Source of the DNA: an uncultured Lentisphaeraceae bacterium
Lineage (GTDB): Bacteria; Verrucomicrobiota; Kiritimatiellia; RFP12; UBA1067
Direction of reading: 5' to 3'
Length of the DNA stretch: 64,000 nt
Assembly (NCBI GenBank): GCA_964386385.1
Contig: CAYLRN010000007.1
Coordinates: 54,374 to 118,373, forward strand
Position numbers and translations under genes: made by a program
Notes under the pieces: model-generated
Told to the model about the DNA's origin: nothing
What the model saw: the letters and a program-made list of their open reading frames with translations, nothing else
Databases searched by the model: none
Part shown: positions 29,448 through 33,063 of the stretch, piece after piece
Numbering within the stretch: position 1 is the first letter of the stretch
Layout: each line of letters opens with the position of its first letter

Positions 29448-29938
29448 ACCGTATCGATTCAACCGCAACGCGCCGCCGGCGCGGCTTCACGATGGTGGAA
29501 CTGCTTGTCGTGATCGCCATGCTCATGCTCCTCATGGGCTCCGTGACGTCCGCCATCATGTCCGCCCAGAAGCGCTCGAAGATCGCCAAGGCCACCACCG
29601 CCGTGCAGGAGCTGACGAACGCGATTCTCTCCTACGAGAACTACACCGACGACCACAACCTCTCGTCGGTCGCGATCCCATCGTGGCAGGACGTCGACGA
29701 GTCCACGATCTCGTTCCTTCTCGGCAAGGAGTCGAACAAACAGGGCAAGATTCCCGTCCTGTACAACGCGGACCTCAGGAACGGCAAGCTGCTCGACCCG
29801 TGGGGGCATCCGTACCGCGTCCAGATCAAGCCGGGCACGATAACGATGGAAGACCGCGGAGTCCTTGGCTCTTCCGCCAAGACGCACGTGGCGTTCCCGA
29901 ACTTCTACCGCCACCTCTACCAGGAGGATGAACTGTGA
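29444..29938 (+). CDS. gspG: type II secretion major pseudopilin GspG
   Basis: RRGFTMVELLVVIAMLMLLMG N-terminus and the canonical C-terminal LDPWGHPYRVQ motif; 164 aa. The ORF track shows it only as the tail of an out-of-frame 548-aa ORF. Confidence 0.8.
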   Translation: MNRIDSTATRRRRGFTMVELLVVIAMLMLLMGSVTSAIMSAQKRSKIAKATTAVQELTNAILSYENYTDDHNLSSVAIPSWQDVDESTISFLLGKESNKQGKIPVLYNADLRNGKLLDPWGHPYRVQIKPGTITMEDRGVLGSSAKTHVAFPNFYRHLYQEDEL

Positions 29939-32900
29939 GCAACTCGAAGCGCGGCAGCGCACTTCTCATCGTGCTTGGATTCCTGTCGTTCATGGTGGTC
30001 TCCGCCGTGGCGTTCTCGATCTACATGCGCTCCGAACGCCAGCCGTCCTCGGCCCTCCGCCGCGTCGTGACGTCCCGCCACCTCGCCAGGGCCGCCCTCG
30101 CCCGCGCCATGGGCGAGATAGACGACGCCGTGCGCTACGAGGCGTTCCCCGGCTGCCTCAGCGGAACGTCAAAGGCGCCGCAGCGCTCCGGCTCCGCGAA
30201 CGGACAGTCCGGCCCCACCTGCCAGCGCGCCGCCTGGCTCGGCCGCGTCTTCATGCCGCTCTGCCCCGACGACAATCTCGCCAACCTCAATTCCAACGAC
30301 CGCTACATCATCCCCGACGAGCGCCTGGGCGAGTCCGTCTCCACCCTCACGCTGGAGGGTCTCGGCTACATCCCGCCGCCGCTCGTGAACGACGCCCGCT
30401 ACAACAGCCGCCGCTCCTGGGCGTCCGTCTGGAAGTACTTCGCCTTCGACGCCGGGCGCTATGCGTACACCGCGCTGAACGTCTCCGACTGCTTCGACGT
30501 AAACCGCCTCCAGGCCTGGACAAACCGCAACTCCGGCGCAGACGGCCGCGTCACGCTCTCGTACCTGTTCGGGCTTCAGGACGGACAGATGACGCAGAAG
30601 GCGTCGGAGATGAAGAACTTCGACGACTTCCTGCGCACTAACCGCGGCGGCGAACTGGGAGAGCTGCCGTTCGTGTCCATGATGGACTACACGCTCGCGC
30701 TCGGACAGAACAGCCTCGCCTCCATCTCGCCCCTGTTCTACGAGTGGCTGAATGCCGGCAACCGCTCGATGTTCTACAACACCGTCGCCTCCGACAAGAC
30801 GAGCGCCCTCAACAACGACCAGATGCTCAAGGCCATCCGCCAGCCGTTCCTGGCCGACTCCTGGTTCCCCGTCACGAACTCCGCCGCGAACGCAGTCCTC
30901 GACCTTTCGCGTCCCGAATGCCAGCCCCTCGACGGATTCCCCCTGCAGAACCCGACATGGGCAGACCTGTCGTCCAACAACAAGTTCTGGAACAAGTTCA
31001 CGGAGGAGATGCCGCCTCCCCTCACGGCGATGCTCTACGACTATCTCGACGCCGACGACATTCCGGTCTCCCTCGTCATGCCGTGTACGGAGTTCATGCC
31101 GATGATTGCGGAATTCGACGTCAGCGGCAAGCCGATATTCACCCTCTATAAGGCATCCACCACCATCGTCGACCCGGACACCGGCAACAAGACCGGGGAG
31201 GAGACGAGCTATACGGTCAAGATCGAAGTTCCGAATCTCGCGGTCAGCGTCATGCCCGTGTTTCCGTTCAAGCACGGTCGCGACAGGATGGCCAACACCA
31301 GCTTCAAAGTCCAGGCTATCGCCCGTCTCTTCCTCGCCGACCCCACCACCATAAACCGGTCTGCAACCGGTTTCGGGAAGGTAGACTGGAAGACGTACAA
31401 GGGCAAAACCGCCGCAGAGGCGGCGTTCGACGGAAACAGTTCCATCGTTTTGGTCTCCGCCCCCGTGTCGTTCAACATCCCGAACGACGAAAAGGAGGGC
31501 GGCGCGGAGATAAAGAACGTCCATGTCGCCCTGCCGGCTTTCACCGAGACGCGCGGGCTGTTCAAGGTGATAACGCAGAACGGGCAGACGAGGTATGACC
31601 CCCCGTCTGAATCCCCGATTGCCATTCTTGACAGTGGATACAATACTATTGAGTTGGCTGATATTGCCGGTTCGACCGTCAGCGTCGTCCCGCAGGTCGC
31701 GATAACCCTTCGCGTCATGGCGTCTTCCGGCGACACCGTCGACCTCGTGCCGGCGATGGGCGAGGACGACGTTGCGCTTAACGGCCGCTCGCAGATCGAT
31801 CCGGCCATCATGAACAACATCTGCGGAGACAAGACCCCGCTCATGCGGGTGCAGACGAAGTTCTCCTCCACCGGAGGCGCGGTCTCCCTGAGCGCTGACA
31901 GCCTCGCCACTCTCATGGCCGACGACGACGACAAACTTACCTTGAACGTCGTGGACTTCGAGGATGGCGACAACGGATACTTCTGCTGCGACCCGCGCTT
32001 CAACTGGGCGCCGGAGGACTGGGTCAACAAGCAGGCAAGTGGCAACGTCTTCGACGACTGGCTGAAGAACGTAGCCGGTGCGGTCCTCGGTGTCGATTCC
32101 AAGCACGACGCGGACATCTTCATGAACGTCTCAAACGCCGGCTATCTCCAGTCGATTGGCGAGTTCATGTTTCTTCCGCGCATAAGCGACATCAGGGAGA
32201 AGACCCACGACCCCGCACTGGGCTTTATCGGCGGCCACTCCGCCACGCTTGACGGCGTAATCCGCACCGCCGCTGGCGATCTCGCCAACGCAAACTGTAT
32301 GTGGCGTTGCTACAAGCCGACGGAGATTGGTGGCGAGGACAACCTCTACCAGCTTGGAGTCGTCAACGGACAGGGCGGATTCAGGATCAATCCGTACACC
32401 GACGACGCCACGATCTTCCTCGGCGCAATCGCGAACACGCCCGTGGACTGGTGGGCCGCCGCCACGAACTTCGAAAGCCAGACCTCGTCCAAGGACAAGA
32501 ACGACCTGAAGTTCGACGAGTCGATCAAGATGTCGTACGGGCCGGAAAGCGACACCGACCAGTGGACGTGGGATCAGGTGAAGAAGGTTTCCGACGCCCT
32601 GCACAATGTCTTCCTTGCGGCTCTGCGCGACGACGCGAATGCCGGCAAGACCCCTATGGACTGGCTTTCCGTGTATGATTCCGCATGGAACGGCTGGATG
32701 AACTCCGACAATGAAGACCAGCTCTTCGGCGTAAACCTCTCCGGCTCGACGCTGTACGACGCGGACCGCAAGTTCCTCTACGACTACTGGCGCGACTGCT
32801 TCGCCTGCCGCCAGCAGCTCTTCCTGATATTCATCCGCGCCGAGTCCACCGCGCTCGGCGGAAGCGGCGACGGCGGCACCCCCGGCCAGCTCGGCGTCCG

Positions 32901-33063
32901 CGCCGTGGCCCTCGTCTGGCGCGACCCGGAGGAGCCGTCCACCGGCCGCGACGGCGTCGCGGGCCAGGACACCGACGCGAACAAGCCCGAGAACGCCTCT
33001 ACGGACACGAATCCGCGTCCCTCGCATAGAATGCGCGTCCTCTTCTACCACCAGTTCGACTGA
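29935..33063 (+). CDS. 1042-aa protein with a GspK-like N-terminus (minor pseudopilin K-like) and a large extra C-terminal region
   Basis: N-terminal KRGSALLIVLGFLSFMVVSAVAFSIYM matches the GspK signature (R-G-x-A-L-L-x-V-L followed by a TM helix). Three times the usual GspK length. Confidence 0.6.
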   Translation: MSNSKRGSALLIVLGFLSFMVVSAVAFSIYMRSERQPSSALRRVVTSRHLARAALARAMGEIDDAVRYEAFPGCLSGTSKAPQRSGSANGQSGPTCQRAAWLGRVFMPLCPDDNLANLNSNDRYIIPDERLGESVSTLTLEGLGYIPPPLVNDARYNSRRSWASVWKYFAFDAGRYAYTALNVSDCFDVNRLQAWTNRNSGADGRVTLSYLFGLQDGQMTQKASEMKNFDDFLRTNRGGELGELPFVSMMDYTLALGQNSLASISPLFYEWLNAGNRSMFYNTVASDKTSALNNDQMLKAIRQPFLADSWFPVTNSAANAVLDLSRPECQPLDGFPLQNPTWADLSSNNKFWNKFTEEMPPPLTAMLYDYLDADDIPVSLVMPCTEFMPMIAEFDVSGKPIFTLYKASTTIVDPDTGNKTGEETSYTVKIEVPNLAVSVMPVFPFKHGRDRMANTSFKVQAIARLFLADPTTINRSATGFGKVDWKTYKGKTAAEAAFDGNSSIVLVSAPVSFNIPNDEKEGGAEIKNVHVALPAFTETRGLFKVITQNGQTRYDPPSESPIAILDSGYNTIELADIAGSTVSVVPQVAITLRVMASSGDTVDLVPAMGEDDVALNGRSQIDPAIMNNICGDKTPLMRVQTKFSSTGGAVSLSADSLATLMADDDDKLTLNVVDFEDGDNGYFCCDPRFNWAPEDWVNKQASGNVFDDWLKNVAGAVLGVDSKHDADIFMNVSNAGYLQSIGEFMFLPRISDIREKTHDPALGFIGGHSATLDGVIRTAAGDLANANCMWRCYKPTEIGGEDNLYQLGVVNGQGGFRINPYTDDATIFLGAIANTPVDWWAAATNFESQTSSKDKNDLKFDESIKMSYGPESDTDQWTWDQVKKVSDALHNVFLAALRDDANAGKTPMDWLSVYDSAWNGWMNSDNEDQLFGVNLSGSTLYDADRKFLYDYWRDCFACRQQLFLIFIRAESTALGGSGDGGTPGQLGVRAVALVWRDPEEPSTGRDGVAGQDTDANKPENASTDTNPRPSHRMRVLFYHQFD

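Follow-up and report, generated by a model that had tools for sequence, protein, structure and literature searches.

What kind of protein begins like GspK, the tip subunit found in type II secretion systems (T2SS), and then continues to about three times its length? The question is raised by a gene at 29935..33063 on the forward strand of the window analyzed here, the whole 64,000-nucleotide stretch of contig CAYLRN010000007.1 from an uncultured Lentisphaeraceae bacterium of the Kiritimatiellia. GspK/PilK-type subunits start filament assembly and define the tip of T2SS pseudopili and type IV pili. Our analysis shows that the giant protein is a widely conserved version of GspK, about three times oversized, in gut Kiritimatiellae, and we consider it likely that the gene supplies a type II secretion-like (type IV filament) machine of this bacterium with its tip subunit, a member of the GspK/PilK family.

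Results and Discussion

The giant protein has a prepilin-type N terminus and GspK motifs beyond it

The open reading frame (ORF) of 1042 residues that an earlier note had assigned to this position is intact, and an identical protein is on record.

29935..33063, forward strand: giant GspK-like gene, GTG start, 1042 codons and a stop

The product has a mass of 114 kDa and a pI of 4.7. Its GTG start and the stop codon of the pilin-like gene before it form a GTGA overlap (…CTGTGAGC…), and an AGGAGG lies 9 nt 5' of the start. The N terminus reads MSNSKRG up to Gly7, the putative prepilin-peptidase site at the expected position, and SALLIVLGFLSFMVVSAVAF after it; it thus combines a short basic leader and Gly at −1 with Ile, not Glu, at +5. 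As written from the start (MSNSKRG-SALLIVLGFLSF…), the chain includes K-R-G-S-A-L-L-I-V-L. The sole hydrophobic segment spans residues ~7–32 and contains the only 19-residue window with a Kyte–Doolittle value above 1.6. Gly at −1, a hydrophobic helix and the lack of Glu at +5 are the features of a GspK prepilin-type N terminus. The GspK signature that the earlier note had read in the first ~60 residues is therefore present, with its basic leader, motif and single hydrophobic segment, and it is accompanied by a weak, reproducible profile match: the NCBIfam model T2SS_GspK (NF037980) aligns with residues 6–64 (E = 0.0048, 16.5 bits), and a weak match to the same model was observed in 12 of 41 family members. 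Likewise, the profile of the family matched a profile of 36 GspK proteins with 75–88% probability over the first 64–77 columns. The canonical GspK proteins retrieved with E. coli K-12 GspK have 286–393 residues, in agreement with the earlier statements that a normal GspK is far shorter (~330 residues) and that the present protein is far larger than any canonical one.

The remaining ~980 residues had been thought to lack any GspK counterpart, which proved incorrect. The segment N182-V-S-D-C-F-D188-V-N190 corresponds to the GspK motif D..CFNLN, and N190 and the GspK Asn are each invariant in their own family. In addition, the invariant motif D369-Y-L-D-A-D-D-I-P377 corresponds to D-Y-I-D-V-D-D-S-P of E. 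coli GspK. The two first-domain motifs of GspK (D..CFNLN and DWIDxD) are thus found in the same order, with CF[ND]xN and DY[IL]DxDDxP conserved. When residues 140–200 and 355–385 were joined, they aligned to GspK columns 68–169 with an hhalign E-value of 3.7e-5 and a score of 35.3, compared with at most 18.5 for 50 same-length segment pairs taken from elsewhere in the protein. The motifs lie ~180 residues apart in the giant protein and ~45 apart in GspK, with ~155 residues inserted between them.

A spliced core of all conserved islands aligned end to end with GspK (96% probability, E = 2.9e-9). However, when tested against permutations and random segments, the islands after residue 700 added nothing above chance: islands 720–760, 810–850, 940–1000, and 1028–1042 scored 18.0, whereas random controls reached 30.9. 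Because these controls leave signal only in the N-terminal helix and in residues 140–200 plus 355–385, we dropped the end-to-end alignment as evidence for the later regions. The later GspK motifs (SELR and INVNT) and the C-terminal strands are not recognizable by sequence.

The size of the protein is conserved across a large, unannotated family

To an ORF of this length in DNA of 63–65% G+C, where long spurious ORFs are common on both strands, the first objection is that it might be spurious or might result from a sequencing frameshift that merged two genes. The search returned more than 690 homologues, and those listed nearly all cover 99–100% of the query at 33–85% identity. A genome scan identified relatives in 162 species-representative genomes, and in all 80 loci kept from it, the family member is either full length or runs to the end of the contig. 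Moreover, a search of 1.84 billion representative proteins returned 1237 clusters (at 50% identity) with E ≤ 1e-3 and 457 with E ≤ 1e-30. Among the best 150 of the 1237 clusters, lengths range from 966 to 1221 residues, except for two shorter members of 754 and 815 residues. Invariant residues are scattered over the whole length of the chain. These homologue, genome, and cluster data, together with the spread of invariant residues, refute both forms of artefact, and the conserved operon order described below additionally argues against a frameshift fusion; we regard an artefact as almost inconceivable. The comparison across related genomes that the earlier note had called for thus shows a size conserved clade-wide, and the joined genes that it had named as grounds for abandoning its reading were not found.

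By label, the source genomes are mostly Kiritimatiellia/Kiritimatiellae metagenome-assembled genomes (MAGs) from rumen, horse feces, human gut, and similar sources; some are labeled Verrucomicrobia or Lentisphaerae, and a few are obviously mis-binned. Among species-representative bins, the operon also occurs in some labeled Lachnospiraceae, Clostridium, Methanomethylophilaceae, Barnesiella, Gemmiger, Faecalibacterium, and Muribaculaceae, labels that probably reflect bin contamination or mislabeling. The MAG CAMORM01 contains two separate loci, each encoding a full-length family member, and these may represent a paralogous second system or a mixed bin.

Every source name shown for the family proteins is "hypothetical protein," no Pfam or NCBIfam model recognizes the family, and the giant protein itself has no Pfam match. 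The family is therefore real, conserved, and unannotated. Large-insert PilK homologues are already known; what is notable here is the size and its conservation across the clade. A family of 1237 clusters is in itself a large addition to be annotated, and a GspK of triple size throughout a clade shows how much cargo the scaffold can carry in cis.

Parts of a GspK scaffold seem to be distributed over the chain

The AlphaFold2 model, for which 55 homologues were used, had a mean predicted local distance difference test (pLDDT) score of 80.1 and a predicted template modeling (pTM) score of 0.83. Along the chain, it contains a helix at residues 10–65, strands at 99–108 and 175–182, a helical region at ~209–371, a beta-rich region at 390–700, a mixed region at 700–950, and C-terminal strands. 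We divide the chain as follows.

Residues 1–65 (29935..30129, forward strand): leader MSNSKRG, hydrophobic segment without Glu5, and long N-terminal pilin helix; conservation 0.84
Residues 140–200 (30352..30534, forward strand): conserved block with strand 175–182 and motif N182..N190
Residues 201–389 (30535..31101, forward strand): mostly helical and variable, ending in motif D369..P377; interpreted as the first part of the GspK alpha-domain in expanded form
31102..32049, forward strand: the segment between residues 201–389 and 706–955
Residues 706–955 (32050..32799, forward strand): mixed alpha/coil with conserved islands; tentatively the second part of the alpha-domain
Residues 956–1042 (32800..33060, forward strand): predicted strands 961–970, 988–996, and 1033–1041; candidates for the C-terminal strands of the pilin sheet, one of them a putative cis donor

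The islands of the 706–955 region are DIFMxVSNxGYLQSxGE at 727–743 and NPYTD..ANTPxDWWAA at 819–842. Region 719–875 is confident in the model of the whole chain (block means mostly 85–93) and poor when residues 375–955 are modeled alone, suggesting that it packs on the parts omitted from the shorter construct. It is this behavior, together with the predicted strands, that leads us to place the islands after residue 700 tentatively in the second half of the GspK alpha-domain and among the C-terminal pilin strands; the sequence statistics do not support the assignment of residues 706–955. At the extreme C terminus, strand 1033–1041 is predicted with a pLDDT of ~82, and H1031, R1034, L1036, F1037, H1039, Q1040, and F1041 are invariant.

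Column conservation follows the same division. It amounts to 0.84 in the N-terminal helix, 0.74–0.84 at residues 141–200, 0.81–0.89 at 941–1000 (0.86 at 955–1000), and 0.92 at 1030–1042, including the last 12 residues, whereas the inserted regions average 0.45–0.53 and carry most of the indels. Such a pattern would be expected of a pilin core with conserved assembly contacts and of exposed inserts that are free to vary. The model is also consistent with a pilin fold bearing an inserted alpha-domain, as in 3CI0 and 5VTM. Overall, the GspK scaffold seems to be distributed over the chain, the extra mass being an insertion within it.

According to the model, this extra mass comprises ~700 residues and would consist of the expanded alpha-domain and a ~315-residue module rich in beta-sandwiches. 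The inserted modules weakly resemble immunoglobulin (Ig)-like, C2, carbohydrate-binding module (CBM), and adhesin beta-sandwiches, and for most of the chain, no relative could be detected beyond the family. The earlier note had suspected a weak internal duplication from DDANAGK and DDDDKLT. We reject it: self-BLAST at E up to 100 returned nothing off the diagonal, hhalign among five segments of the protein gave at most 7.7% probability, and the two acidic stretches, at residues 899 and 663, lie in unrelated regions.

The gene closes a conserved operon of pilin-like genes

As the earlier note had supposed, the giant gene sits in the position of the tip protein of a pseudopilin cluster, being the last pilin-like gene of an operon on the forward strand that comprises GspF/PilC and seven further pilin-like genes.

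23727..25052, forward strand: GspF/PilC platform protein, 441 residues, first gene of the operon
25052..26248, forward strand: pilin-like protein, 398 residues, N_methyl, weak T2SSG match at the C terminus
26291..26914, forward strand: pilin-like protein, 207 residues
26916..27503, forward strand: pilin-like protein, 195 residues
27469..28323, forward strand: pilin-like protein, 284 residues, weakly GspH/XpsH-like
28320..28931, forward strand: pilin-like protein, ~200 residues, weakly PilV/GspI-like, also weakly like Verru_Chthon cassette protein B
28941..29447, forward strand: pilin-like protein, 168 residues, weak N-terminal matches to GspG, GspH, and GspJ
29444..29938, forward strand: GspG-like pseudopilin, 164 residues, best GspG match, TIGR01710 E = 2.3e-10, LDPWGHPY, directly upstream of the giant gene
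33107..33637, forward strand: acidic protein, Pro/Glu-rich in a linker, 176 residues, immediately downstream of the giant gene; no match in Pfam or NCBIfam

The overlap of the GspG-like gene with the giant gene indicates that the two are translationally coupled. In a tblastn survey of 83 related loci, with per-gene counts of 70–81, the seven pilin-like genes and the giant gene have the same order in all but a few of the loci with enough upstream DNA. GspF was found upstream in 47 of the 83. The 176-residue gene follows in only 22, so its membership is uncertain, and its product is probably not a core part of the system. As is expected of GspK, the giant protein is thus encoded with a platform gene (GspF) and with G-, H-, and I/PilV-like pseudopilin genes.

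The scores of the platform protein as a T2SS component (GspF) and as a type IV pilus component (PilC) are near-equal and below the cut-offs. In one related locus, a GspE/PilB-like ATPase is encoded 5 kb downstream, with 575 bits for GspE and 554 for PilB, both again below the cut-offs. We regard the machine as a type II secretion-like type IV filament, with the GspG-like pseudopilin and the GspK-specific motifs leaning toward the T2SS lineage.

The 398-residue pilin-like protein encoded directly after GspF has a prepilin N terminus and is two to three times as large as pseudopilins usually are. Its gene was found in 70 of the 83 related loci, and two called relatives that were examined have 398 and 410 residues.

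A possible role at the tip of the filament

A 2026 study reported that, across diverse type IV filaments, assembly of the tip complex requires completion of the PilK/GspK sheet by a C-terminal beta-strand (PMC13533445). According to that study, PilY1/PilC supply the strand in trans, with the same predicted for the ~1200-residue MshQ; GspK, CpaL (~600 residues), and further PilK homologues supply it in cis, and in several of these (CpaL and ComZ), large insertions precede the donor strand. The invariant and confidently predicted last strand of the giant protein fits the donor-strand role described there.

From the fold, motifs, gene context, and conservation presented above, we infer a tip location, a donor strand, and a cap function. 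The N-terminal hydrophobic helix would anchor the protein in the inner membrane and later in the core of the filament. By homology with GspK, the missing Glu5 would mark it as the first and topmost subunit, since no subunit lies above it. A pilin-type core formed from N-terminal elements (residues 1–200) and C-terminal elements (residues ~956–1042) may dock onto the I-like and J-like minor pseudopilins encoded upstream and prime polymerization of the G-like pseudopilin, with the invariant last strand completing the sheet in cis. The ~700 inserted residues would then form a cap or head of ~70–80 kDa on the filament tip, enlarged and probably ligand-binding. On a periplasmic filament, it may serve as a platform to which secreted substrates or the secretin bind; on one that reaches the surface, it would bind external ligands. 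The earlier note had suggested a tip-located adhesin or substrate-recognition module, and the extra mass may have such a role. The recently proposed model of tip licensing by C-terminal strand addition has in the giant protein a natural test case.

Comparison with known tip proteins

Judged by these features, the giant protein would be structurally closest to GspK/XcpX (3CI0 chain K, 5VTM chain X; NF037980; PF21687 and PF03934) and would work in a similar manner. The two share the N-terminal RG(S/V)ALLIVL with no Glu5, one hydrophobic helix, CF[ND]xN followed by DY[IL]DxDDxP, and a gene that follows other pseudopilin genes in an operon with GspF. However, the giant protein and its family (966–1221 residues) are three times longer than GspK, its ~315-residue beta-rich module and a further region of ~250 residues have no GspK counterpart detectable by sequence, and the other pilin-like genes of its operon, seven in number, are in a non-canonical order.

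CpaL/TadG of the tight adherence (Tad) system and ComZ of Thermus competence pili (PDB 6QVI) are similar in principle, each having a minor-pilin-like N-terminal domain, a large insert, and a proposed cis C-terminal strand (PMC13533445). In C. crescentus, CpaL without its C-terminal strand left pili almost undetectable, whereas CpaL without its middle region allowed piliation at ~38% of wild type (PMC13533445). With ~600 residues in CpaL and 518 in the ComZ chain of 6QVI, these proteins are about half the size of the giant protein. Neither has a sequence or family match to it, and the Tad-type pilin-like N-terminal domain and von Willebrand factor A (vWA)-type middle domain of TadG/CpaL are absent from it. 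Unlike CpaL and ComZ, the giant protein has GspK-type alpha-domain motifs, which place it in the T2SS-like lineage. PilY1/PilC and MshQ, of type IVa and mannose-sensitive hemagglutinin (MSHA) pili, give a comparable total tip mass; their large tip modules are anchored through a C-terminal strand that joins the PilK sheet. They are separate, non-pilin proteins that donate the strand in trans, whereas here everything is in one polypeptide, and the giant protein lacks the C-terminal beta-propeller of PilY1/PilC.

The Verru_Chthon cassette (TIGR02596, TIGR02598, and TIGR02599, with protein A as TIGR02600) is likewise a cassette of pilin-like proteins from the superphylum Planctomycetes–Verrucomicrobia–Chlamydiae (PVC), and its protein A is very large. 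Weak matches to cassette proteins B, C, and D were obtained for the I-like and other pilin genes of the operon; they reflect the shared prepilin N terminus only and lie far below the cut-offs. With E up to 1 allowed, the protein A model matched none of the 41 family members. In the literature, we found nothing specific on pseudopilins of Kiritimatiellae or of the PVC superphylum.

Weighing the alternatives

Several observations weigh against a GspK-type tip subunit. The NF037980 score of 16.5 bits compares with a curated cut-off of 130. The Pfam models T2SSK and T2SSK_1st have no match in 40 of the 41 family members, the remaining match being one to T2SSK_1st at E = 0.035. When the full-length profiles of the family and of GspK are compared, only the first 64 columns align, and the C-terminal strands and residues 720–850 match GspK no better than controls do. 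Foldseek against the PDB returned nothing significant for the giant protein, and the evidence for the fold, including the pairing of the C-terminal strands with the N-terminal sheet, comes from a predicted model. Moreover, the gene order is not the canonical G-H-I-J-K, as the GspG-like gene is the last before the K-like gene, and a search of the 64-kb window revealed no secretin or ATPase gene; no PilT gene was found there either. Because the curated thresholds are missed and the length lies outside the ~300–350 residues of GspK, the most fitting description of the giant protein is that of a GspK/PilK superfamily member that is highly derived, not of a GspK equivalog. One could go further and see in it a bitopic inner-membrane protein that is not a pilin, whose anchor would resemble GspK by convergence only and whose periplasmic domain would have an unconnected function, structural or enzymatic, within the operon. 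Such a protein would agree with the sub-threshold scores on all curated GspK models, with the lack of a GspK match by Foldseek, and with the absence of detectable relatives of most of the chain outside the family. We nevertheless consider it highly improbable, given that the GspK motifs outside the anchor are significant against controls and that the gene is strictly linked and translationally coupled to pilin genes. An enzyme homology of the C-terminal part, which the earlier note had named as a finding that would overturn its GspK assignment, was looked for as well, and neither family nor fold searches matched the rest of the protein to an enzyme family. The GspK-like nature of the protein is thus upheld by fold, motifs, N terminus, and operon context.

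A closer contender retains the family assignment and differs in the kind of filament. The machine could be a surface-exposed, type IV pilus-like one, in which the giant protein is a PilK/PilX subunit fused in cis to a tip adhesin of the PilY1/PilC/MshQ type; its beta-sandwich and alpha modules would be presented to host or dietary glycans or to other cells. Its mature mass of ~114 kDa is close to that of a minor pilin plus an adhesin of PilY1 size, and MshQ has ~1200 residues. The inserted modules are the variable part of the chain and are those that weakly resemble Ig-like, C2, CBM, and adhesin beta-sandwiches; seven pilin-like genes exceed the canonical T2SS number; and GspF and the ATPase of the related locus score about equally as PilC/PilB and as GspF/GspE. 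In addition, both cis and trans solutions to strand addition have been described, with large inserts in systems that lack an adhesin (PMC13533445). However, no beta-propeller and no match to PilY1/PilC, vWA, or any other adhesin family was found, and the GspK-specific alpha-domain motifs and the GspG-like pseudopilin (DPWGxPY) point to the T2SS lineage. We therefore hold a surface pilus to be rather unlikely, and a GspK/PilK-family tip subunit of a type II secretion-like machine remains the reading that we favor. A bolder form of the idea, which we likewise put forward as doubtful, is that gut Kiritimatiellae build a distinct class of type IV filament from eight pilin-like subunits, whose tip is a single 114-kDa polypeptide fusing a PilK/GspK initiator with a PilY1-sized binding head of novel fold. 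If true, it would be a cis solution to the attachment of a tip adhesin, possibly one that grips mucin or dietary glycans or hands substrates to the secretin.

Other genes in the window

To our knowledge, the secretion and adhesion machinery of these abundant, uncultured, glycan-degrading bacteria of the gut and rumen is essentially unstudied. Immediately upstream of the operon, at 20457–23258 on the forward strand, a 933-residue fusion combines a DAO-type FAD oxidoreductase, a BFD-like [2Fe-2S] domain, and a pyridine nucleotide-disulphide oxidoreductase. A 593-residue protein with Schlafen AlbA_2 and HATPase_c_4 domains is encoded at 16023–17804 (forward strand). At 42537–45731 (forward strand), a 1064-residue protein has a hydrazine-synthase-alpha middle domain (PF18582) and a C-terminal FGE-sulfatase domain (PF03781). 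Finally, a GH106 alpha-L-rhamnosidase at 52039–54936 (reverse strand) lies next to a 670-residue protein with a Mito_fiss_Elm1 domain at 50046–52058 (forward strand), and the rhamnosidase is consistent with a glycan-degrading lifestyle.

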